Below are positions 8,387-58,786 of a stretch of DNA of 64,000 nt, one piece after another (position 1 is the first letter of the stretch; each line of letters starts with the position of its first letter). A program made the translations under genes and the position numbers. The DNA comes from a virus (lineage: Duplodnaviria > Heunggongvirae > Uroviricota > Caudoviricetes): the IMG/VR virus record IMGVR_UViG_3300022871_000010, one strand, 5' to 3'. The notes below the pieces were generated by a model that was not told the DNA's origin, did no database searches, and saw nothing but the letters and a program-made list of their open reading frames with translations.

Positions 8387-10687
8387 TTATACATCACCCT
8401 GTTCTTCCCTGATTTTCATAATTAATTGTTTTGCATCAGTCATGATTTGTTGCACTTGTTTTTTTGATATAGGAATGTCATACTGGTTCTTTACGTGAAG
8501 AGTAATTCTATTCATAGTCAGTGTCGTGTCATTAACCATAATATCTTGTAATGCAAGTAACAACAAAGACTTGTAAATATCTGTTGAAGAAACTTCACTA
8601 CGAACGACATCTTCATCATACACATTTCTTTCCCTAACCTTCAAGTATTTTGTGTACAACCAATTTGGAACTTTAGGAAATTTTATTATTTTCCAAAAAT
8701 TTGGATGTTTTTTTAGTTTCTTTTCAATCTCAGTTAATGAAGTGAACTCAGTATATGAGCCAACGTTTTTAAAATCTTTAAGTCTCCATGGGTCGTTACT
8801 TGGATTTTTATCTTTAACATAAATTGCGCCAAGACCTCTACCAAATAAATCTATCCAGTAATTTACGAAAGAATTATGAACCAATAGATTATTTGCAACA
8901 TAATTTTTGTTTTTGTTTACATTTAATATATCATAAACATCCACATTTGGTTCTTTATTTATTTGTATTATTGATTCAAACTTATTTGATATTGTAAAAA
9001 TTTTATGATTATGTGTTAATTCATGTAATTGTTTCCATCCATCATTTGTAAAAAAACTATGATTTTTTGTGGCCTTAATTTTATTATTTGTTGTAATAAT
9101 TTCAAAGACTATATCATTTTTTGTTTTTACACAAGCTTCAGCAAATTGATATTCATACTTTTTATTTTTTATATCATAGCTTAATACTTCAATGTTTGAT
9201 TTATTTTCTAAATGTTTTATTTTTTGTAAACCCTGTCTAGTATGTATTAAAGTGTCCCCATGTAAACATTCTAAATAATTTTTTTCTATCTTAACAATTT
9301 TTAATGGAAAACATAAAATAAATAATAAATGTTTTGTTCTAACTTCCGCTAACCGTTTTTTTAATTCTTTAGACTCTTTTTTTGCCCAATCCGCAGAACT
9401 ATTATGTACAACAAAATTATTAGCAATATAATTATTATTATCTTCAACATTAATTATATCATAAACATCTATTTTTTCTTTTTTTGTTATGCTTTTAATT
9501 TTTATAAATTTATTATTAAAACATACTAACATATTTTTATTAATATGTTGCAATTCTTTCCATCCATTATTTGTTAAAAATTTATGTTCTTTAGTGGCTC
9601 TTATAATGTTTTCATTTTCGATTTCTAATTCATATACATAATCTGTTTTTGTTTTAATTATTGTTTTGGCTTTTTTAAATTCTGTTTGTTTATTTTTTAT
9701 ATTATATGATAATACTTTAATATTTTTTTTATTTACTAAAGTGCTTATTTTTTTAGGACCTTCTAAGGTTTGAATAATTGTGTTTCCACAAATACACGCA
9801 AACCTTACCGCTTCATCTGCGATTATTGGTTCGAACGCATTTAATTTATTAATTTTATCCATAACGTCTTTATTGTTATAGGCTAAATGTCTATTGGGGT
9901 CAAATCTTATTCCAATTAATTTACACCATTCTCTAGCTAACATTATTGAGGCAGACGATTTTCCAGTATTTGAAACAACAAACCCGTTAGCTATAAAATT
10001 ATGATTATCTCTAACATTAACTACATCATAAACATTTTGTTTTCCTAAATGTTTTATTGATTTTATTATATTATTTATTATTTTTTTATTATTATCAACT
10101 GTCACAATTTTTTTAGTTTTATCATTTATTTTCAAATCTTTTAATTCTTTATATGTTCCGTCCATTAATAAAAACGGATGGTCTGCAGTGGCCTTTATAA
10201 TTTGACCAGTTATTAATTCTAATTCATATACATCATCATACTTAGCAAACTCTACACCGTCAGAATCTTTTATTTCTAATTTTTTAGTATCCTTATTAAA
10301 TGAATAAACTTTTATTGGACCTTTATTTATTAGTTCTTTTAATGGAACTCCAACCGGATATTTTGTTAAATCTCTAGGCATCATCAATAAAGAATCATCT
10401 GTCAAACATCCTTTCTCAGAAGTCATTAGTACCATACTATCGTAGTTGGCTAAATTTCTATAAAGTAAATGTTTTGCAAACATTCTAAATATGTTGAAAC
10501 CTCTGTTGTTTGGTTTTTCTCCTTCAACATATTTTTTACCTTCTTCATTGTGCATTTCTTGAATTATAAATAGAATATCATTTAACCCAAGCTTGACACT
10601 ACTTGGATTGTCTGTCTTAAAAGATTCTTTAATTATGTTTTCTACTAATCTCCTAGTACCAAAACCTAACTCTTTTGCGTCAGCCAT
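8387..10687 (-). CDS. AAA+/P-loop ATPase interrupted by three mini-inteins. The extein is about 355 aa and is Orc1/Cdc6-like or packaging-ATPase-like.
   Basis: The spliced extein reads SEKG|TGKSSASIML (Walker A), then about 50 aa later EPIIADEAVRFA (Walker B). Three inserts each start with Cys and end in (H/S)N followed by Ser or Thr. Confidence 0.7.
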   Translation of the reverse strand: MADAKELGFGTRRLVENIIKESFKTDNPSSVKLGLNDILFIIQEMHNEEGKKYVEGEKPNNRGFNIFRMFAKHLLYRNLANYDSMVLMTSEKGCLTDDSLLMMPRDLTKYPVGVPLKELINKGPIKVYSFNKDTKKLEIKDSDGVEFAKYDDVYELELITGQIIKATADHPFLLMDGTYKELKDLKINDKTKKIVTVDNNKKIINNIIKSIKHLGKQNVYDVVNVRDNHNFIANGFVVSNTGKSSASIMLAREWCKLIGIRFDPNRHLAYNNKDVMDKINKLNAFEPIIADEAVRFACICGNTIIQTLEGPKKISTLVNKKNIKVLSYNIKNKQTEFKKAKTIIKTKTDYVYELEIENENIIRATKEHKFLTNNGWKELQHINKNMLVCFNNKFIKIKSITKKEKIDVYDIINVEDNNNYIANNFVVHNSSADWAKKESKELKKRLAEVRTKHLLFILCFPLKIVKIEKNYLECLHGDTLIHTRQGLQKIKHLENKSNIEVLSYDIKNKKYEYQFAEACVKTKNDIVFEIITTNNKIKATKNHSFFTNDGWKQLHELTHNHKIFTISNKFESIIQINKEPNVDVYDILNVNKNKNYVANNLLVHNSFVNYWIDLFGRGLGAIYVKDKNPSNDPWRLKDFKNVGSYTEFTSLTEIEKKLKKHPNFWKIIKFPKVPNWLYTKYLKVRERNVYDEDVVRSEVSSTDIYKSLLLLALQDIMVNDTTLTMNRITLHVKNQYDIPISKKQVQQIMTDAKQLIMKIREEQGDV
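8873..9268 (-). mobile_element. Mini-intein 3 (aa 474-605, 132 aa).
   Basis: Starts CLHGDTLIHT. Ends KNYVANNLLVHN|S. It is paralogous to intein 2: both have EVLSY / KATK(E/N)H / VYDI(I/L)NV. Confidence 0.8.
9401..9796 (-). mobile_element. Mini-intein 2 (aa 298-429, 132 aa), inserted just after Walker B.
   Basis: Starts CICGNTIIQT. Ends NNYIANNFVVHN|S. Confidence 0.8.
9968..10408 (-). mobile_element. Mini-intein 1 (aa 94-240, 147 aa), inserted inside the P-loop between G and TGKS.
   Basis: Starts CLTDDSLLMM. Contains the block-B-like TADHPFLL. Ends DNHNFIANGFVVSN|T. Confidence 0.8.
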
Positions 10688-26327: not shown

Positions 26328-26969
26328 ATGCTTAATAAAGTATTGAGCACTAAACGAAAAGGTATATACACCATGACAGAAAACGAATTTGATAAATTAT
26401 ACAAACAGGATGACTCCGCGGAGACATCAAACAACACAGCTAATTCTGAAGTAAAAGAAGAAATTGTAGTAAGTGGAGACGCTGGTTTAGAGTACGATTT
26501 TAACAAAGCTTCAAAAACTACTAAAGGTCCAGAACGAGAAAACTTGGATGGTAAAACTGTAACTATTACAGATATGAAAATAATTTTACCAAAACCTGAA
26601 AAACCTTGGGACTTATCTAGAGATAAAAAAACTAAATACAAAAGTTGTGTGTTTATATTATTTTATGATAATGAAGGACAGAGAGAATATTATTCTGGAG
26701 TAAAAGTTTTTGAAAGAGAAGTTAATGGAGTATTCTCATATTCAGACCCTAACATTCAAAATAGTGGAAAAACACAAATCACTGGTTTGAAAACACTTTA
26801 TGCTGCATACAAAAATAAAAAGCCTGAAGAAGTTAGCATGTTCGAATTTTTATCGTTCCTTAAAAGTCAACCAAAAGTTGAACTTAAATGGACACCTATA
26901 GAATGGAACAACTCTGAAACTGGTAAAGACGAAATTTCACATAAGAATTTTGTTGCTAAGTTTATTTAA
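26328..26969 (+). CDS. Hypothetical protein (213 aa). The start may be the internal ATG at 26373.
   Basis: ORF only. Confidence 0.5.
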   Translation: MLNKVLSTKRKGIYTMTENEFDKLYKQDDSAETSNNTANSEVKEEIVVSGDAGLEYDFNKASKTTKGPERENLDGKTVTITDMKIILPKPEKPWDLSRDKKTKYKSCVFILFYDNEGQREYYSGVKVFEREVNGVFSYSDPNIQNSGKTQITGLKTLYAAYKNKKPEEVSMFEFLSFLKSQPKVELKWTPIEWNNSETGKDEISHKNFVAKFI

Positions 26970-27149
26970 ATATTTTTTTTATTTTTTTAATAATTATTAT
27001 CAAGCATTATTACACAGGGCTATTTGATATATTCAATTGATTTTTTCGTTGTGTAATAATATTAATATTTACGTGCGGTTGGTTGGAGTTATTCAGCAGA
27101 ACTATGGTTTTTGTATATGAATAAAAAGACCCATACATCCGCATTACTA

Positions 27150-27222
27150 GGGCTCGTAGCATAACGGCTAATGCAGTCGCCTTGCAAGCGAAAGACTTTG
27201 GGTTCAAATCCCAACGGGTCCA
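27150..27222 (+). tRNA. tRNA-Ala (anticodon TGC).
   Basis: Cloverleaf read by hand: acceptor GGGCTCG/CGGGTCC with the G3:U70 Ala identity pair, D-arm GCAT/ATGC, anticodon loop CTTGCAA, T-arm TTGGG-TTCAAAT-CCCAA. No encoded CCA. Confidence 0.8.
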
Positions 27223-27509
27223 TTCATACCAGAAACAAAGACAGAACAATATAGCTAACATACGATGTTGTAAGGAAAACCAGGTACTCTGGCAACCTAT
27301 ATCTGTAGTCGCAACAGACTATCCTGCCAGGGGTAAATGAAATACAAGTAACGATGAGATTAGTAAATAATGAAAACTTTAAATGAACCTTTTTGGAATG
27401 TTTAATGTTGAGTAATTGTTTAAAATTGTTTGAGTCACTCAACTGGTTTCAAGGTTTATTGCTCTTTGCTGGATAAAGGTAGTTTCCGCCTAAAAGGGAA
27501 CATTCAATT

Positions 27510-27598
27510 TGGGGCATAGCTCAGTATGGTAGAGCAGGTTAATGGGATAATTTAATTATTCAATCTATCAGTCGGGGGTTCGAATCCCTCTGCCCTTA
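27510..27598 (+). tRNA. tRNA-like gene with about 14-20 extra nucleotides in the anticodon arm (possible archaeal intron) and a mismatched 1:72 pair. The anticodon could not be assigned.
   Basis: Acceptor and D-arm (T)GGGGCA-TA-GCTC-AGTATGGTA-GAGC. T-arm GGGGG-TTCGAAT-CCCTC. 3' acceptor TGCCCTT-A. The middle region AGGTT...AATCT can pair around a 21-nt insert. Confidence 0.5.
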
Positions 27599-27599
27599 T

Positions 27600-27870
27600 T
27601 CAATAATCACACTTAACCATACTCCGTAGCTGATGAAAAGGTTATCTAGGTTTGGACGAACGAAAGCGGAGATAATTGTCGTCTCTCAATTGTGCACGAG
27701 TAGAGTGGAAAGGGTGTTAGACAACATAAATTCAAGCAGCACATAAAGCATGAACATGTCAAGAAGGTGTGAATCCTTCAAATATTTCCATAATCGGGCT
27801 TCGCTCGAGAAGATATATACCGGGAAGATGTTCTTTAAAAAGGGGCACGCCCGCCGGTATTTAATTATTG
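27600..27870 (+). ncRNA. Candidate structured noncoding RNA: a GC-enriched island next to the tRNAs.
   Basis: Local GC is far above the 30% background. Codon content (CGA, ACG, GCG) is atypical for this genome. GC-rich helices are possible (GGGCTTCGCTCGAG..., GGGGCACGCCCGCCGG). No confident family assignment. Confidence 0.3.
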
Positions 27871-27894
27871 CACATAAATATTTAGGTAAAAAAA

Positions 27895-28008
27895 ATGAAA
27901 ATAGATATAATTTGTAATGATTGTTTAAAGATAATCAGGACTGAAGAAAAAGACACATTTGATTATCATCATAAAGATTATTGCAAAGAGTGTGAGGAAA
28001 ACAAATGA
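27895..28008 (+). CDS. Zinc-ribbon mini-protein (37 aa). Not in the ORF track.
   Basis: MKIDIICNDCLKIIRTEEKDTFDYHHKDYCKECEENK with two CxxC pairs, preceded by an A-rich RBS. Confidence 0.45.
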   Translation: MKIDIICNDCLKIIRTEEKDTFDYHHKDYCKECEENK

Positions 28009-28028
28009 ATTAATAGAAGGGATAAATA

Positions 28029-39220: not shown

Positions 39221-42200
39221 ATGATTAGAGAAAAAGAATATGTTTGTCCTCCAAATTTTGAGGATGTATTAATATACGATATAGAGACAGCGGCATTCGG
39301 GGATTCGCCTAATGCACAAAAAAATGATTTAAGAGTATTTGGGTATTATTCATTTAATACAGATACTCTAGGAACATTACCGTATTATGATAAAGAAGGT
39401 ATTCAGAAACTTATTGATGAACATAAATTCTTAGTAGGTTATAATAATATAGAATATGATAATCCAATATTAGAGAGAGAAGGAATTTCTTTAGAGTATA
39501 AACGAATGGTTGATTTGATGAAAATATTATTAAATAGGGCCGGCGGAATGAAAACAAATAAAGGAATGGTTGGGCAAGAACTATTAAGATATTCGTTAGA
39601 CGCAGTGACAAGATTCTTTGACTTAGTAAATGATGAAACAGCAAAAGGAGATTTAGATTATTCAATATTGAAAAAAACTAAATGGACTAAAGAAGAAAAA
39701 GATGATATAATAAAATATACTAAAAGAGATATTGAAATAACTAAAAAGCTTTATTTATTTATGGAAAAATATTTTGAAGGATTTAAAGACTTCGTTCCAG
39801 AAAAAGATATTAAAGGAAAATATTATTTAACTGACAGTATGGCAAAAGTTGTATACAAAGCAATATGTCACGCCCTTAAATGGGAACCAGAATATGATAA
39901 AGACTTCACTCCAGAACTTGCGAAAGATAGAATTGACGGCGGATATGTATCATACCCGGCTGGAGAAAAGTTTGTAGGAAATATTTATTGCCTGGATTAT
40001 AACAGCCTTTATCCATCAATTATGATGATGTGTAACCTTTACGGAAGAAACAAGACTACATTCAAAGGATGGAATGGTGATAACTATTTTGATGTAAAAG
40101 GGTTTTATGATAGTGAAAACCAAAGTGAAACTTCAGTACTATTACAAAACTTATATTTATTAAGAATGATGTATAAACGAAAACTATTATTAGAAGACGG
40201 ACACATCATTAAAATGATAGACAAAAAGAATGGGAAAAGTGTTTATGATTATATAGGACAAAAATATCATCACGTAAGTAAACACGCAGGTGGGCAGATT
40301 TGTTCCTCTTTAGAATTATTAACCAAAGCGCAAGCAGACCATTTCTATAAAATAACTTTAGAAGGAATGGACCCAAGAGAGTACACTATTAAAATAATTA
40401 TTAATTGCTTTGATGAGACAGGACAAGTAATGACCCCCGAAGGAATTAAGTATATCAAAGATTGCAAAGTCGGTGATATGGTTTATTCTATTAATCCAAA
40501 AAATTCATTATTAGAAGTAAAACCAATAATCGATGTAACTAAAAGAGAATACACTGGGAGTTTTCACAATTACAGAAGCAACGGATATAATTTTAGAATA
40601 ACCCCGAATCATAAGTTATTATTAAATAACAAACATCAAAAACAAGGCGACAGTGTATTTTTAAAATCTGTAAGTTTAAGAGACCAAAGAATTATTCCAT
40701 CCGCCAAACCTAATTTTCCGGAACAACCAGAATTTATTTATTTAGACGATGTATACCATGAAAATTTTATGGTAGCTATAAGACCTAAAGACAATGAACA
40801 ATTGTTTTTCACAGATAATAATTTAGATATTAATGATTTCAGGTACAGTACAGTATTGAAGGCATACATAATTAAATACAGTGAAATAAAAAAAACTTTA
40901 AGAACATTAGAAAATTGTGATATAAAATGTTATCACGAAGACACAATCATTAGAGATTGCAATGCAATGGATTATAAAATGGATAGAAAAACTTTTATGG
41001 AATTGATTGGATGGTTAATATTCAGAGGAAATATTCATAAAGTTAAAACATACACTACAATAAATCCTAGAACACTAAAAGTAAAAAAAGTTGCGGAAAG
41101 ACAGTTCATGACAATTAAAGGAACACATAGTTGGTCTGAAACAATAACAGTTAAAGCAATATTTGATTTGTGTAAATCTCTGGGGTTGCATCCAGTAAAA
41201 CAAGGAAAAATAATATTATGTCATAATCAGATTTTAGTAAATATGATGTTACCATATAAAGTTGACGACACCCTAATGAATTTAGAAGGGTTCCTAAAAT
41301 ATTTAGATGCTGAAACCGCGCACTTAATAATTAAAACGATGATAAAATTTTCTCAAGAAAATTCATCAACAGACATATGTGTTTGGGATGAAGGAGCAAA
41401 AATAGCAGTATGCAAACTTATAACTTTAGCTGGAGGAACTTTTGTTTTAACACCAAAAAAGAATTTTACTAGAATAAGAACATCTTTTGTTCCAACGCTA
41501 ATAGGACCAAAAAATAAAAAATCATATCAACACAGTGGACCAATATATAACATTCATGTAAAAGATAACCATACTATACTTGCGGGGAGCTATGGGAAAT
41601 TTAATTGGATAGGGCAAACATCCTACGGGATTTTAGATAAGAAGTACTACAAATTAGTATATGATAAAGTTGCCGCAGGAGATTGTACCAGATTAGCCAG
41701 ACAATGGGTTAAGTTAGCAAGAAAAAGGTTTAAGGCCGAAGGATACAAAATCATATATACAGATAGTGTAACTAAAGATATGAAAGTAACTTTACAGAAT
41801 GACGAACAAATAACGGTTGAAGAATACTGGAATAAGTATGCGGCAAATAAAGAGTTAGTTGCAGAAACAAAATTTAGACATGAAGACAAAGAATATGGTG
41901 ATTGTATCAAACCAATACTAACATGCAACGATTTATACAAGAACGAGTTTCAAACACCAGTACAAATAATAAGGCACAAGAAAGCTGATAGAATTTATGA
42001 ATTTCATACAGAATCAGGTAAAGTATTAAAATGTACAGCAGACCATTCAATAATAACATTAGACTTAGACACCATGCAATATAAGACAATAACACCAGAA
42101 GAAGCAAAAGAAGTAGGGTTTTTATTAATTGACGTTAGAACGCACGGAATGGCTCCTGATGATATGACTTTAGAGGAAGCAGATTTCACAATGGATGCAA

Positions 42201-43021
42201 TAGTTAAAACAGAAGAATATTTCGAGAATGATTATGTTTATGACTTTTCAATAGATGATTACGAAAAGTTCTATGCCAACGATGTATTAGTACATAATAC
42301 TGATTCATGGTATTTTGAAGATGTGTACGACGACCCACAAAGATTCCTGGAATTAAAGGACAAATTAATTGAGGAAATAAAAACACACACACCATTCCCA
42401 TCGGCAACATTTGATGCAGGAGTAGATGATGAAATTAAAGCAATGTTCTTTTTTCAAGCAAGAAAAGGTAAAGCTGCTAAAGAAGAAGATGAAAGCGAAT
42501 TAGATGATGATGACCGAATGTATAAACCTTTAGGCCTAATGAAAAAGAATTACATTTATGTAACCCAGAAAGACAAATTAGTATTAAAGAATTTAGGGAT
42601 AAAGAAAAAAAGTATCAGTGCATTATCTAAAAAGATATTTTGGGAATACATGGTTCCAATAATAAAGAAAGACTTTGTAGTAAAGTTTTCTAAAGTAAAG
42701 ATAGATAACTTAATGATTGAATATTTATCTGAAAATATAGAGTTAGCCTATATGAGAAAGAAAGTTAAATCATATGGGGCGTATAAGAAATCAAACACAA
42801 TAATTCAAGCACAGATAGCTAAGAAGTATGGCCCAGGAATACATTTTTTAATACCAAACAAAAGACATATTGGTGTTGGAAAAGGAGTAACTTATTGTTC
42901 AGACAAAGAATTCAAAGAGACAGGAATGAGCATAGCAGATATAGATTTAGAATATTATCGTAAAGAATTAGCTTATTTTGCAGTAGATAACAGACAACAA
43001 AAGTTGTTTGATATGTTTTAG
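39221..43021 (+). CDS. polB: Family-B DNA polymerase with a 3'-5' exonuclease domain, interrupted by two inteins. The extein is about 694 aa, or about 740 aa if intein 2 takes the shorter Cys-start boundary.
   Basis: Exo I IYDIETAA, Exo II YNNIEYDNPIL, Exo III YTKRDIEIT. Motif A LDYNSLYPSI. Motif B KIIIN-[intein]-SYGKF. Motif C GYKIIYTD-[intein]-TDSWYFE. KxY motif KKNYIYV. Confidence 0.85.
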   Translation: MIREKEYVCPPNFEDVLIYDIETAAFGDSPNAQKNDLRVFGYYSFNTDTLGTLPYYDKEGIQKLIDEHKFLVGYNNIEYDNPILEREGISLEYKRMVDLMKILLNRAGGMKTNKGMVGQELLRYSLDAVTRFFDLVNDETAKGDLDYSILKKTKWTKEEKDDIIKYTKRDIEITKKLYLFMEKYFEGFKDFVPEKDIKGKYYLTDSMAKVVYKAICHALKWEPEYDKDFTPELAKDRIDGGYVSYPAGEKFVGNIYCLDYNSLYPSIMMMCNLYGRNKTTFKGWNGDNYFDVKGFYDSENQSETSVLLQNLYLLRMMYKRKLLLEDGHIIKMIDKKNGKSVYDYIGQKYHHVSKHAGGQICSSLELLTKAQADHFYKITLEGMDPREYTIKIIINCFDETGQVMTPEGIKYIKDCKVGDMVYSINPKNSLLEVKPIIDVTKREYTGSFHNYRSNGYNFRITPNHKLLLNNKHQKQGDSVFLKSVSLRDQRIIPSAKPNFPEQPEFIYLDDVYHENFMVAIRPKDNEQLFFTDNNLDINDFRYSTVLKAYIIKYSEIKKTLRTLENCDIKCYHEDTIIRDCNAMDYKMDRKTFMELIGWLIFRGNIHKVKTYTTINPRTLKVKKVAERQFMTIKGTHSWSETITVKAIFDLCKSLGLHPVKQGKIILCHNQILVNMMLPYKVDDTLMNLEGFLKYLDAETAHLIIKTMIKFSQENSSTDICVWDEGAKIAVCKLITLAGGTFVLTPKKNFTRIRTSFVPTLIGPKNKKSYQHSGPIYNIHVKDNHTILAGSYGKFNWIGQTSYGILDKKYYKLVYDKVAAGDCTRLARQWVKLARKRFKAEGYKIIYTDSVTKDMKVTLQNDEQITVEEYWNKYAANKELVAETKFRHEDKEYGDCIKPILTCNDLYKNEFQTPVQIIRHKKADRIYEFHTESGKVLKCTADHSIITLDLDTMQYKTITPEEAKEVGFLLIDVRTHGMAPDDMTLEEADFTMDAIVKTEEYFENDYVYDFSIDDYEKFYANDVLVHNTDSWYFEDVYDDPQRFLELKDKLIEEIKTHTPFPSATFDAGVDDEIKAMFFFQARKGKAAKEEDESELDDDDRMYKPLGLMKKNYIYVTQKDKLVLKNLGIKKKSISALSKKIFWEYMVPIIKKDFVVKFSKVKIDNLMIEYLSENIELAYMRKKVKSYGAYKKSNTIIQAQIAKKYGPGIHFLIPNKRHIGVGKGVTYCSDKEFKETGMSIADIDLEYYRKELAYFAVDNRQQKLFDMF
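40406..41587 (+). mobile_element. PolB intein 1 (about aa 396-789), carrying a LAGLIDADG-type endonuclease, at the motif-B (pol-b) site. The C-terminal junction is non-canonical.
   Basis: Starts CFDETGQVMTPEGIKYIKDCKVGDMVYSI. LAGLIDADG-like LIGWLIFRGN and LITLAGGTF. Block F-like IYNIHVKDNHTILAG. No His-Asn immediately before the SYGKF that restores motif B. Confidence 0.6.
41765..42298 (+). mobile_element. PolB mini-intein 2 at the motif-C (pol-c) site. The preferred boundary is a Ser-1 start (aa 849-1026), giving the spliced motif YTDTDS. The alternative is a Cys start at 41903 after EYGD.
   Basis: Block A SVTKDMKVTLQNDEQITVEEY. Block B VLKCTADHSIITLD. C-terminus ANDVLVHN|TDS. Confidence 0.65.
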
Positions 43022-49309: not shown

Positions 49310-49483
49310 ATGTCAATAAGAGTTATTGCGGGAGTATTAATGATTCTAATGACCATGCTCATGACGTGGCGTGAAGGTATGATTAAATTTATAGCAATAG
49401 GTATAGGCATTGTAATATGTCTATATATTATCAGAAAGATTGCGGACCTATATTGGTATGGCAAAGACAAGAACGAGTGGTAA
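49310..49483 (+). CDS. Small membrane protein (57 aa). Not in the ORF track.
   Basis: MSIRVIAGVLMILMTMLMTW...IAIGIGIVICLYII. Confidence 0.4.
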   Translation: MSIRVIAGVLMILMTMLMTWREGMIKFIAIGIGIVICLYIIRKIADLYWYGKDKNEW

Positions 49484-49494
49484 TATTTCTAAAT

Positions 49495-50320
49495 TAATTA
49501 AATTATAGCACTGACTTAATTGTCGCACTCTTTTATAAAGTAGTCAGGGCTATATATAAATGAACTGACTTAATTGTTTCACATCTATATTCTCTAAACT
49601 ATATGTTGTAAACTATATGTTGTAAACTATATGTTCTAACCTATATGTTGTAACCTATATGTTCTAAACTATATGTTCTAAACTATATGTTGTAACCTAT
49701 ATGTTGTAAACTATATGTTCTAAACTATATGTTCTAAACTATATGTTCTAAACTATACTTCATTCTTGTTATTTACTTGACTGACAAAAATGTCTCACTC
49801 CTTTTATAAAGAAACACAGTTCATATATAAAGGACTGACTTAATTGTCTCACATCTATATTCTCTAACCTATATGTTGTAACCTATATGTTGTAACCTAT
49901 ATGTTGTAACCTATATGTTGTAAACTATATGTTGTAACCTATATGTTGTAGACTATATGTTTCCAACAAGTTACTTTTATCGGGACTGACAAAAATGTCT
50001 CACTCCTTTATAAAAGAAGTTACTATATATATAAATGGACTGACTTTTTTGTCTCACATCTATATTCTCTAACCTATAGGTTGTAACCTATATGTTGTAA
50101 CCTATATGTTGTAACCTATATGTTGTAACCTATATGTTGTAACCTATATGTTGTAACCTATATGTTGTAGACTATATGTTTCCAACAAGTTACTTTTATC
50201 GGGACTGACAAAAATGTCTCACTCCTTTATAAAAGAAGTTACTATATATATAAATGGACTGACTTTTTTGTCTCACATCTATATTCTCTAACCTATAGGT
50301 TGCAGACTATACCTTTTATA
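49495..50320. repeat. Higher-order repeat locus. Four roughly 110-bp leaders, each with two TATA-like boxes and duplicated GACTGAC...GTCTCAC elements, are each followed by an array of 14-bp direct repeats (CTATATGTTGTAAC or CTATATGTTCTAAA).
   Basis: Arrays span about 49597-49757 (11 or more units), 49867-49958 (about 6.5), 50071-50178 (about 7.5) and 50291-50312 (truncated). The leaders at 49981-50070 and 50181-50290 are identical. There are no spacers, so this is not a CRISPR. Confidence 0.9.
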
Positions 50321-51975
50321 AAGGATACTATAAAATGTTGTATAAAATTGATAAAATATCAAAAAATGAGATTTTTGGATTTACAATTTTGAAAGGCTAA
50401 AAAATTTTTTAGCTTCGTGAAAAAACCAATTCGTTTCTCGGTAAAACTCATATGAAACTTTTTTCTCTATATACAAATACGCATAATATTTTATTTGCTT
50501 AAAGTAACATTATGTTTAATTGTTTAACTAATCTAACACGCAGACACCCCCAATTAGGGTAGTGTTTTTGGAAGAATCGGACCATCTAGAATACTTAGCA
50601 TCTTAAACATACTATCCCTTTATAAAGGAAATATATATTTCTGAAAAAAAATTATATATTTATTCTGAGAATTATATATTTCTTTTATATACTTTATAAA
50701 CAAATCTAAATTAATTAACAACAGGTATATACATTTCAGTAATTCATATACATCTATATGTTTTTTATTAATTCATATACATTTGGGGTTAACAGAACAT
50801 GCCAGATGATACAGGTATTCTCTGATGGTATCTTTTAGATACTAAGTATACAAAAGATACTATGGTTTTATTTTTATAATTATATATTTCTTTTATATCC
50901 CAAAAAGTATGCAGTGCATTACATACATTGTATACATTGTATGCATTGTATACATGTAACACTTAGGAACTTAAACGCGGGTAATAAATGATACAGACCG
51001 GCACAATATATAACAGATGTGTTGCGTGTAACACATGGGGTCTAAAAGATACTAGGGATATTTCTGGTAACACACTGGACTTCAATTTTGAATTTTGAAA
51101 TTTGAATATATAAAAGAATAAAAATTAAACAGGTAATAAAAATATAGGTCATGCCACATTGCGCACAGTTCAACCACCCGATGTGTTACCACCCAAATTT
51201 CAAATCAGGTAACACGGAACAGCATATTTGAAATTTTATATATGATATTTGGATAATTTCAATTTTTAAGAATTTAAAGCGTAATATTTGAAATTTTTAA
51301 ACTAGTTGAAAATCCCTATATTTCAAAATTCAAATATAGCTTTAAATTCAAATTTCAAAATTCAAATATAGCTTTAAATTAAATATTTCAAATATTGTTT
51401 ATATATAGGCGTAAATTTCAAATATTCAATTTTTAAACAGGATAATTTTAAATATTCAATTAGAACATATTTAAATTTTAAAATTAACGTGGTTTATTTG
51501 AATTTTAAGAACTTATTTGAATTAGTATATAGATATATTTGAAATTATTTTAAAGTTCTTTAAAACGCTTAATATTTGAAATTCTTTTATAAAGGACTTT
51601 TGGTTTTTAAAAAATTGAATTTTCTTTATATACTAATTGAATACAACCTGTTTATTAGTAGAATTTAAGGGGGTAATATTTAGGGGGTATATAGGTTTTA
51701 AAAAAAATACATTATTTCATTTAAAAGGAAATAGGGTACAGCCTCTCTACTATCCGAATTAAAGCATATTAACTTTTTTACTATTTATAAAGGTTTCTAT
51801 CTGTTTAAAAGGTTATTTTTTTACTTTATAAATAAAATTTTTAGTCTTTATAAAGGGTTTCGGTTTATATGTTTAATAGAGGTTTCAGGGTATTTACTAC
51901 TAAAAAATTACAAAGAAAGTTTATATACATTTTTTACTTTCTTACATCATAAGGTAAATAAAAACCTTAAAAAAA
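50321..51975. promoter_or_regulatory. 1.65-kb AT-rich noncoding region dense in ATTTGAAAT/ATTTCAAAT motifs and short direct repeats. Candidate replication origin or unwinding region.
   Basis: No ORF of 60 aa or more. More than 15 copies of the 9-mer in both orientations at 51060-51620. A roughly 31-bp tandem duplication at 51330-51390. CATTGTATAC x3 at 50920-50955. GTGTTAC/GTAACAC operator half-sites at about 51020-51216. Confidence 0.5.
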
Positions 51976-52221: not shown

Positions 52222-52368
52222 TTTTTTTTATTGTTTAGGTGTGTTACTTTAATAGATACTACAAAGTAACACGCAAGAGCCATTTTACAAAACCGAAAGG
52301 TTTATATATAAGCTATGCTTTTAGTAATTATAAGGAATTAAACCTTAAAAAAATTAATAGAGGAAAAA
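52222..52368 (+). promoter_or_regulatory. Promoter cassette copy 1: oligo-T terminator, 10-bp perfect inverted repeat GTGTTACTTT-N12-AAAGTAACAC (52241-52272), BRE/TATA AAAGGTTTATATATA (about 52296-52312), conserved leader TTATAAGGAATTAAACCTTAA, then SD GAGG.
   Basis: Almost identical cassettes at 53606, 55798 and 58705. Confidence 0.75.
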
Positions 52369-53409: not shown

Positions 53410-53601
53410 ATGAATTTTAAAATAGATATTAACGAAATTAAAACACAGGGCGAAGCTAGAAGTTTAGGAATGGAGTTTCAAGAGTGGAGTAGCAAACAAA
53501 GTTTAAGTTATGGAGAATTAATAAATTATCAAAATGATTTAATGACAATAGCAGAAAAATTTGATTTAATCGAAGAATTTAAAGAGAATGGAATAATTTA
53601 A
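53410..53601 (+). CDS. Hypothetical acidic protein (63 aa).
   Basis: ORF followed by a T-run. Confidence 0.45.
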   Translation: MNFKIDINEIKTQGEARSLGMEFQEWSSKQSLSYGELINYQNDLMTIAEKFDLIEEFKENGII

Positions 53602-53605
53602 TTAT

Positions 53606-53752
53606 TTTTTTTTATTCTTTACGTGTTACTTTAATAGATACTACAAAGTAACACATAAGAACTATTTTACAAAAACGAAAGGTTTATATATAAGCTATAC
53701 TTTTAGTAATTATAAGGAATTAAATCTTAAATAAATAAATACAGGTGGAAAA
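53606..53752 (+). promoter_or_regulatory. Promoter cassette copy 2. Inverted repeat at 53623-53654; TATA at about 53678-53692.
   Basis: Same architecture as copy 1. Confidence 0.75.
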
Positions 53753-55797: not shown

Positions 55798-55941
55798 TTT
55801 TATTCTTTATGTGTTACTTTAATAGATACTACAAAGTAACACACAAGAACTATTTTACAAAAACGAAAGGTTTATATATAAGCTATGCTTTACTATATTT
55901 ATAAGGAATTAAACCTTAACAAAAATTTAATGAGGAAAAAA
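55798..55941 (+). promoter_or_regulatory. Promoter cassette copy 3. Inverted repeat at 55811-55842; TATA at about 55866-55880.
   Basis: Same architecture as copy 1. Confidence 0.75.
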
Positions 55942-58705: not shown

Positions 58706-58786
58706 AAACGATACATTTATATATAAGCTATACTTTACTATATTTATAAGGAATTTAAACCTTAATAAAAATTTAATGAGGAAAAA
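58705..58786 (+). promoter_or_regulatory. Promoter cassette copy 4: TATA plus conserved leader only, without the inverted-repeat operator.
   Basis: atacatttatatataagctata...ttataaggaatttaaaccttaa...gaggaaaaaATG. Confidence 0.65.

Follow-up and report, generated by a model that had tools for sequence, protein, structure and literature searches.

A virus-borne tRNA cluster with a canonical tRNA-Ala gene, a remodelled tRNA-Pro-derived gene and an adjoining candidate RNA

Why would a virus carry, next to a canonical tRNA gene, a second tRNA-shaped gene that probably cannot decode? The question is raised by a non-coding intergenic island of roughly 1 kb, at about 27100-27900 of a 64-kb stretch of the tailed-virus record IMGVR_UViG_3300022871_000010 (Caudoviricetes); this whole stretch is called the window below. 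An initial annotation had described an element carrying an island of tRNA and non-coding RNA genes. The island was borne out, and the element turned out to be the entire window, a large virus genome. As a viral tRNA cluster in which a good member stands beside an aberrant one, the island belongs to a familiar class of features, and its unusual points appear limited to a constant, remodelled mimic of tRNA-Pro and to the unclassified candidate RNA that adjoins it. The features at issue are the following.

27150-27222, plus strand: canonical tRNA-Ala(UGC) gene without encoded CCA (ARAGORN; Rfam RF00005)
27510-27598, plus strand: tRNA-like gene, by its sequence derived from tRNA-Pro(UGG) (Rfam, 39.7 bits; ARAGORN)
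27599-27781, plus strand: candidate structured RNA of about 180 nt, directly 3' of the tRNA-like gene and present in all haplotypes

The two tRNA-type genes

The tRNA-Ala(UGC) with a G3:U70 pair reported for this locus is found by both ARAGORN and Rfam, the latter at 63.5 bits and E = 1.9e-11 (gathering score 29). Its acceptor stem GGGCUCG/CGGGUCC contains, as read from the sequence, the alanine identity pair G3·U70, and its 7-nt anticodon loop CUUGCAA, with anticodon UGC, U33 and a purine at position 37, is that of a canonical elongator. The start of the gene, GGGCUCGUAG..., is of archaeal rather than bacterial type. Because this tRNA reads GCA, which makes up 52% of the alanine codons in 19 viral open reading frames (ORFs), codon supplementation, proposed at the outset as compensation for codon bias, is plausible. 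The mascRNA-menRNA model of Rfam matches the tRNA-Ala alone, weakly, at 19 bits.

The second cloverleaf, described with good D- and T-arms and a 1:72 mismatch, is likewise found by both tools, with boundaries at 27509/27510 and 27598/27599; ARAGORN labels it 'tRNA-???', and its Rfam score stands above the same gathering score of 29. Its acceptor stem begins with the mismatch U1·U72 and with G2·U71, followed by five Watson-Crick pairs, and A73 is present. The D-arm GCUC/GAGC with G18G19 and the T-arm GGGGG-UUCGAAU-CCCUC are well formed, and the tertiary core (U8, A14, G15:C48, G18G19, U54U55C56, A58) is intact. The anticodon/variable region, in contrast to 13 nt in the Rfam model, measures 29 nt, that is, 16 extra nucleotides. 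The gene has neither a paired position 1:72, nor an anticodon stem of 5 bp that closes a 7-nt loop, nor a variable loop of 4-5 nt (or a class-II variable stem-loop), and the label of degenerate tRNA suits it in that it is non-canonical in form, with its anticodon/variable region remodelled.

How this region folds bears on whether the RNA could decode. ARAGORN draws a 6-nt loop AUGGGA on a 5-bp stem GGUUA/UAAUU, followed by an unstructured variable region of 21 nt; for the classical anticodon stem the predicted probability is 0.001. The stem halves AGGTT and AATCT with 21 nt between them, which had been singled out before, can pair, but this AGGUU/AAUCU helix is merely one of three competing pairings, with a probability of about 0.1. 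The minimum free energy structure contains another element.

27545-27561, plus strand: AU-rich hairpin GGAUAAU-UUA-AUUAUUC inside the tRNA-like gene (structure at -24.6 kcal/mol)

This hairpin, which goes back to the tandem duplication UAAUU-UAAUU, pairs the UGGG anticodon remnant, with pair probabilities of 0.6-0.8 (the long hairpin about 80%). The tRNA-like RNA is probably unable to decode, since the remodelled region is predicted to fold into the AU hairpin, which buries UGGG, or to present a 6-nt loop at best. A likeness of 27541-27560 to 53587-53606 was set aside as a chance match at the end of a gene.

The ancestry of the gene was examined by a scan of GTDB with its T-arm and 3' acceptor strand as query, which returned at least 120 loci, 118 of them typed. 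Among these 118 typed matches listed, 68 are tRNA-Pro(UGG), 38 tRNA-Trp, 11 tRNA-Gln and 1 tRNA-Leu; the best matches to the 5' half, which lay outside the query, are tRNA-Pro(UGG) among the matches listed. A 22-nt 3' segment is common, again among the matches listed, to many bacterial tRNA-Pro, tRNA-Trp and tRNA-Gln genes and to one tRNA-Trp of Thalassarchaeaceae. The D-arm and acceptor agree with Pro(UGG) at 23 of 26 positions, and the variable loop ends in AGUC. Aligned to tRNA-Pro, the gene reads U1(C)GGGGCAUAGCUCAGU..UGGUAGAGCA-GGUUA-AUGGGA-UAAUU-[16 nt]-(C)AGUC-T-arm-UGCCCUU(CG)A, with a loop xAUGGGA that is one nucleotide short of the bacterial-type YUUGGGA. Sequence comparison thus places its origin in tRNA-Pro(UGG), from which it differs by changes at positions 1, 71 and 72, by the UAAUU-UAAUU duplication and by a 16-nt insert ahead of the variable loop; the drawing by ARAGORN agrees exactly with this arrangement. 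Judged in part by typical tRNA sequences, the aberrant gene appears to be of bacterial-like tRNA-Pro type and stands beside an archaeal-like tRNA-Ala. ARAGORN in intron mode, in tmRNA mode and at lowered thresholds gave nothing credible beyond the two tRNA-type genes, and no further decayed tRNA appeared in the GC-richer patches at E <= 10.

The island in sister strains

Two more haplotypes, on at least seven independent contigs, came from scanning metagenomes with a degenerate pattern and then looking up variant 213-aa proteins: haplotype B (L144, L145/L149, L155) and haplotype C (L147/L148, L150, L151). In both, the tRNA-Ala is followed by 7 nt, UUCAAUU, and then by the tRNA-like gene; haplotype C differs from B upstream of the tRNA-Ala, where it has about 220 nt more and a rewritten leader. 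Across the three haplotypes the tRNA-like gene shows 0 substitutions in 89 nt, and the tRNA-Ala is identical in haplotype B and carries one D-loop substitution in haplotype C. The synonymous divergence (pS) between the window and L144 is 0.064 over six flanking genes (range 0.01-0.10), and at this rate the probability of no change in 89 nt is about 0.003. With 0 changes in the tRNA-like gene and 0-1 in the tRNA-Ala while the flanks diverge or are replaced, the tRNA pair is the constant core of a hypervariable, cassette-swapping intergenic region, which favours a function without proving it.

The turnover around this core involves two segments, set out here with the landmarks of the first.

27227-27506, plus strand: 280-nt strain-specific cassette, absent from at least seven independent contigs of haplotypes B and C
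27221-27226, unstranded: left CATTCA, a 6-nt direct repeat at the boundary of the 280-nt indel (alignment with L144, L145 and L147)
27501-27506: second CATTCA, at the end of the cassette
27231-27245: motif AGAAACAAAGACAGA; the cassette begins 4 nt before it
27289-27330: CTGGCA/TGCCAG hairpin inside the cassette, with arms at 27289-27294 and 27325-27330
27390-27394: T5 run in the cassette
27451-27462: promoter-like AAGGTTTATTGC in the cassette
27782-27894, unstranded: strain-specific spacer; about 330 nt, for the most part unrelated to it, take its place in haplotypes B and C

Judged by these alignments, 27227-27506 is a dispensable, strain-specific insertion, since it is absent from haplotypes B and C, and 27782-27894 is to be read in the same way. 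The first 24 nt of the 280-nt cassette match the start of the different, roughly 330-nt cassette that haplotypes B and C carry downstream at 20 of 24 positions. Two candidate links were rejected: AGAAACAAAGACAGA is not a dispersed repeat within the window, and a hairpin UNUGU-ARYCGCA-ACARN common to the two cassettes is not significant (BLAST E = 5.7). In the downstream cassette of haplotype B, at L144 2112-2128, a perfect T-arm, AUCGG-UUCGAUU-CCGGU, stands by itself with a 3' acceptor-like strand after it; it has no recognisable 5' half, like a tRNA 3'-fragment as left by tRNA-targeted recombination.

These comparisons also bear on the GC-rich stretches that had been proposed as structured RNAs. 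The stretches 27265-27345 (43% GC) and 27600-27870 (41%) do rank at roughly the 95th-99th percentile relative to the window mean of 29% (sd 6.5%, 80-nt windows), but in absolute terms they reach just 41-43%. The CTGGCA...TGCCAG helices exist as described. Compared with shuffled sequence, the spacers show no better folding (z = -1.31 for 27223-27508 and -0.14 for 27600-27880), and Rfam, run at gathering thresholds over the whole window and at E <= 10 over 26900-28000 and haplotype B, gave just the two tRNA matches and no family for the GC-rich segments. The argument from alien codon content to structured RNA does not hold in general, as unrelated sequence replaces 27782-27894 elsewhere. The proposal of structured RNAs survives for 27599-27781, which has some comparative evidence, and fails for 27265-27345, which lies inside the insertion that sister strains lack.

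More distant comparisons place the island at a variable site. In the lineage of L012-L014, whose 171-aa protein is 73% identical to the 176-aa protein of the window, an unrelated, GC-richer block of about 1.07 kb occupies the island position (L012 2286-3357, L013 3929-5000, L014 2084-3155), with no called genes, no tRNA and no Rfam match. Because this lineage has an unrelated block at the same position, the site upstream of the 176-aa gene is a hotspot of repeated insertion. Relatives whose helicases are 45-49% identical or whose 176-aa proteins are 64-79% identical carry neither tRNAs nor a homologous spacer. The close copies reached through the neighbouring 176-aa gene are 100% identical and hence uninformative, and IMG/VR scans for the tRNA-like gene, for the D-arm of the tRNA-Ala and for a D-arm/T-arm pattern gave nothing, a single distant helicase relative apart.

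Small genes around the island vary as well. The island is followed in the window by an ORF of 37 aa with two CxxC pairs, zinc-ribbon-like (27896-28009); in haplotypes B and C (L144 2530-2776) its start codon ATG is replaced, and a further ORF of 88 aa lies between it and the 176-aa gene. A module of about 50 nt with an internal hairpin, AAAATTAATGTCTAAAGCAATCCCACTAnCTTTAGTGGTGGGAGTATCAA, occurs at L144 around 2365-2415 and on the minus strand of L147 around 3715-3665. In these sister strains, one copy lies just ahead of the small CxxC ORF and the other upstream of the tRNA-Ala; the module may be a mobile mini-element or a small-ORF start. Upstream of the 213-aa gene on one contig of haplotype C, gene fragments match LAGLIDADG (weakly) and N6/N4 DNA methyltransferase families (L148 2531-3325), and the window has a 215-aa ORF in their place, a case of cassette turnover at the level of strains.

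The downstream segment and the competing readings

The segment 27599-27781, shared by all haplotypes, differs between them at 14-15 of 183 positions, close to the synonymous value of 0.064. For two haplotypes RNAalifold predicts 48 pairs; of the 14 substitutions in the homologous 174 nt, 8 fall in unpaired positions and 6 in stems, and all 6 retain the pair. Two hairpins stand out.

27714-27727, plus strand: hairpin GUGUU-AGAC-AACAU, in the sister strains CUGAU-AGAC-AUCAG, with two compensatory pairs (G·U to C-G and U-A to A-U)
27763-27779, plus strand: T-arm-like hairpin GAAGG-UGUGAAU-CCUUC (sister loop UGCGAAU), at the 3' end of the shared segment

On account of three G·U pairs, the structure fits the plus strand only, the one that also carries the tRNAs. 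In 1500 simulations with the same counts of transitions and transversions, at least two compensatory pairs anywhere arose in 57 runs (3.8%), and two double changes in one uninterrupted helix, a statistic settled on after the fact, in 2 (0.13%). In haplotype B, AGAAACAAAGACAGA follows 16 nt after the T-arm-like hairpin, which is the spacing from the T-stem of the tRNA-Ala to AGAAACAAAGACAGA in the window. The segment has no Rfam match at E <= 10 and no conserved ORF; a search of 1.84 billion representative proteins gave no homologue of the ORF at 27750-27917, whose 3' part is not conserved. A long open minus-strand frame was rejected as coding, being interrupted in the window and taking about 11 amino-acid changes per 14 substitutions. 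A hammerhead-like CUGAUGA...GAAA at 27629-27665 was rejected for want of a stem II, and a C/D-box reading for want of a D box. As a candidate structured RNA, 27599-27781 has moderate support.

Our preferred reading, which we advance tentatively, is that the island is a co-transcribed RNA locus in which the tRNA-like unit serves as a non-decoding processing handle for RNase P and tRNase Z. Transcription would start from a putative promoter of archaeal type.

27110-27117, plus strand: TATA-like box TTTGTATA, about 36 nt upstream of the tRNA-Ala, resembling the recurrent aaaNNTTTATATA

Haplotype C keeps TTTGTAT at an equal distance from the tRNA-Ala despite its otherwise diverged leader. The promoter would drive a single polycistronic transcript, which the host RNase P and tRNase Z would cut at both tRNA-shaped units. 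The released tRNA-Ala would read GCA, the commonest Ala codon of the virus, and the tRNA-like unit would be kept as a processing handle and not as a decoder, its 3' cut at A73 (27598) setting the 5' end of the adjacent RNA of about 180 nt. In the window strain, the T5 run of the cassette and the promoter-like AAGGTTTATTGC could terminate and then restart transcription. The 7-nt gap between the tRNA units in haplotypes B and C resembles polycistronic tRNA clusters, and the tRNA-like gene and 27599-27781 are adjacent in all haplotypes, with a covariation that comes from two sequences.

Handles of this kind have precedents. In murid herpesvirus 68, tRNA-like units are joined to miRNAs, and the MALAT1 transcript carries the tRNA-like mascRNA. 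In haloarchaea, a tRNA-like element 5' of the 5S rRNA is cut by tRNase Z, and Nanoarchaeum has dicistrons of tRNA and C/D sRNA. As in these systems, a tRNA-shaped and probably non-decoding unit abuts here another structured RNA (in our case a candidate), and RNase P and tRNase Z would set the ends; unlike in them, the downstream RNA is without an Rfam family. A broader version, in which the tRNA-Pro-derived, non-decoding mimic is a functional module, either a processing mark that launches a new viral small RNA of about 180 nt (27599-27781) or a decoy for host tRNA-binding factors, seems to us unlikely. A decoy might target, for example, the CCA-adding enzyme, modification enzymes or tRNA-targeting defence nucleases.

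Several points weigh against a processing handle. Processing and expression of the island RNAs are predicted from the sequence. The downstream segment is known in two distinct sequences, for which RNAalifold never reports broken pairs, and the same-helix figure of 0.13% was chosen after the data had been seen. Its divergence is about neutral, its single-sequence fold has a z of -0.14, and a covariance model of it (R1, 27608-27786) found no second copy in 188 kb of related loci and the window. Divergence is a mosaic along the genome (pS 0.01-0.10), and 0 changes in 89 nt are not significant at a local rate of about 1%; the tRNA-like gene could be conserved simply through its linkage to the tRNA-Ala. 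The viruses with 45-49% identical helicases are without the entire island. Finally, the nearest tRNA-Pro sequences retrieved are bacterial, and an archaeal host is only inferred.

Much of this evidence serves the main rival, a young, decaying tRNA-Pro(UGG) pseudogene in a recombination hotspot, with spacers that are non-functional debris. The gene would have been inactivated by slippage duplication, insertion and acceptor-end mutations, and its conservation would reflect a short divergence time and linkage to the tRNA-Ala. Such decay would account for the several independent lesions (U1·U72, G2·U71, the 6-nt loop, the UAAUU-UAAUU duplication and the 16-nt insert) and for the failure of any deletion to restore a canonical arm. 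It also agrees with an island that is a mosaic of swapped cassettes and has unrelated DNA in its place in relatives, with spacers that fold no better than shuffles, with a downstream segment evolving at an approximately neutral rate and with a covariation statistic that is weak for two sequences. The distribution of the changes fits it less well: the gene is unchanged in three haplotypes though its immediate flanks differ by at least 8% or are replaced, every lesion spares the elbow and the tertiary core, cassettes have been lost or swapped around the gene and never inside it in every haplotype, and two paired transversions preserve the hairpin 27714-27727. On balance we place a pseudogene somewhat below the processing handle, as a strong competitor.

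A decoding tRNA-Pro and a relic of integration are both less likely than a pseudogene. The former would be an unusual class-II-like tRNA with a 6-8-nt loop, or a precursor spliced by a relaxed-motif archaeal endonuclease, and would supplement CCA and CCU, which make up 55% and 34% of the Pro codons. The Rfam score over the gathering threshold, the 5-bp stem GGUUA/UAAUU drawn by ARAGORN, the probably archaeal host and the conserved sequence all suit it. The splicing variant takes up the archaeal intron offered by the initial annotation, and the gene does resemble archaeal intron-containing pre-tRNAs in having extra nucleotides near the anticodon arm, in its probably archaeal context and in an insert of 14-16 nt, a usual size for short archaeal introns; it differs from them in lacking the bulge-helix-bulge (BHB) motif and in having no excision product that is a canonical tRNA. 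Of all contiguous 15-16-nt deletions, tried in turn, the best gave 4 of 5 stem pairs with the cut within the stem, and no single deletion restored a 7-nt loop on a 5-bp anticodon stem together with a variable loop of 4-5 nt. A scan of all positions for a 3-nt bulge, 4-bp helix and 3-nt bulge gave no candidate splicing to a cloverleaf; in the few that match by geometry, the cut enters the T-arm or the product has an 8-nt loop or is not a tRNA, and the intron mode of ARAGORN returned the same call as the run without it. Because there is no BHB motif and no deletion giving a canonical tRNA, an intron is not supported. Nor does an unspliced decoder fare well, given that the ARAGORN stem has no G-C pair and the predicted probability of 0.001 already cited, and that the 21-nt variable region is without a class-II stem. 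The first pair of tRNA-Pro is C1:G72 in bacteria and G1:C72 in archaea, and U·U, fitting neither, counts against a decoder, which we hold to be improbable.

The other suggestion, that the tRNA-like sequence is an attachment (att) relic, the footprint of site-specific recombination into a tRNA gene, could draw on the recombinogenic island with its CATTCA direct repeat at the 280-nt indel, on the isolated T-arm and 3' acceptor fragment of haplotype B (L144 2112-2128) and on some distant relatives (L017/L018) in which the homologue of the 176-aa gene has an integrase and a DDE transposase nearby, but it is not supported and most improbable, because the gene is full-length, with its 5' half, where att copies are normally 3' partial tRNAs, because it sits 7 nt past the tRNA-Ala in the sister strains and because no integrase was found. 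As had been remarked at first sight, none is visible: no integrase or recombinase family appeared among about 40 ORFs of the 64-kb window scanned with Pfam, PHROGs or NCBIfam, the small ORFs being only partly covered. The indel junctions moreover lie outside the tRNA-like gene, and the tRNA-Ala is its neighbour in every haplotype.

The virus and the meaning of the island

The window has about 30% GC and long runs of co-oriented genes; the GenBank phage collection gave only generic tRNA-Ala matches to it. Among its genes, two large ORFs contain intein splicing domains.

39221-43021: family-B DNA polymerase ORF, 1266 aa, with intein splicing domains
8387-10687: helicase-related ORF, 766 aa, with intein splicing domains

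Inteins with LAGLIDADG homing endonucleases are also present in the helicase homologues of relatives. The window encodes a clamp loader of the RFC small-subunit type, which among solved relatives comes closest to eukaryotic RFC4 and archaeal RFCS, before T4 gp44, and a sliding clamp of the PCNA type, together with a PD-(D/E)XK-helicase fusion, an SPFH protein and a NYN nuclease. Many genes are preceded by aaaNNTTTATATA or cgaaAGGTTTATATA boxes that look like the B recognition element (BRE) and TATA box of archaea and not like sigma-70 promoters. Near-identical promoter blocks cgaaAGGTTTATATATAAGCTAT... lie upstream of several genes in the 52-59 kb region (about 52294-52313, 53676-53695, about 55860-55884 and about 58710-58730), and simpler aaaCATTTATATA boxes, BRE/TATA-like and of archaeal pattern, elsewhere, for example upstream of 31008, 34255 and 13238 (the last on the minus strand). 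Genes of relatives match PriS/PriL, ArnR1-type winged helix-turn-helix and proteasome families, in part weakly. Because of the archaeal-type replisome, the BRE/TATA-like promoters and the archaeal-type genes of relatives, the window, called an element before, is very likely a large double-stranded DNA virus of an archaeon. Contigs identical or near-identical to it occur in several metagenome samples of JGI, ENA and Logan and in one NCBI marine metagenome assembly.

One further region was noted. The biggest non-coding gap of the window (49411-51975, 2.6 kb, 25% GC) contains arrays of 14-nt units at 49585-49757, 49865-49961 and 50070-50180, made of 12 copies of CTATATGTTCTAAA and, twice, of 7-8 copies of TAACCTATATGTTG within a 219-nt duplication. 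The gap resembles an iteron-type origin of replication or the terminus of a genome.

Both tailed phages and the tailed viruses of archaea carry tRNA genes and tRNA pseudogenes; group B magroviruses, for example, encode tRNA-Leu and tRNA-Arg (PMC5434244). The island is like such viral clusters in being short and co-oriented, in belonging to a large AT-rich genome, in anticodons that fit the preferred A-ending codons and in placing a non-canonical member of the 'undetermined' type beside a good one. It is unlike them in that the aberrant member is invariant across haplotypes amid changing surroundings and in that its lesions are confined to the anticodon/variable region.

Codon supplementation and evasion of defences that target tRNAs are the usual explanations for the tRNAs of viruses. 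If the tRNA-like unit is merely a pseudogene, the island would still record a hotspot of recombination where close strains, in Antarctic-lake and marine metagenomes, gain and lose cassettes the size of a tRNA. If the unit is processed and not charged, archaeal viruses would be putting the shape of a tRNA to new use, as a module for RNA processing or as a decoy. As a processing handle, it would give access to a new viral small RNA, and as a processing mark it would belong to the first tRNA-linked small-RNA unit described in an archaeal virus, analogous to the tRNA-miRNA units of herpesviruses.

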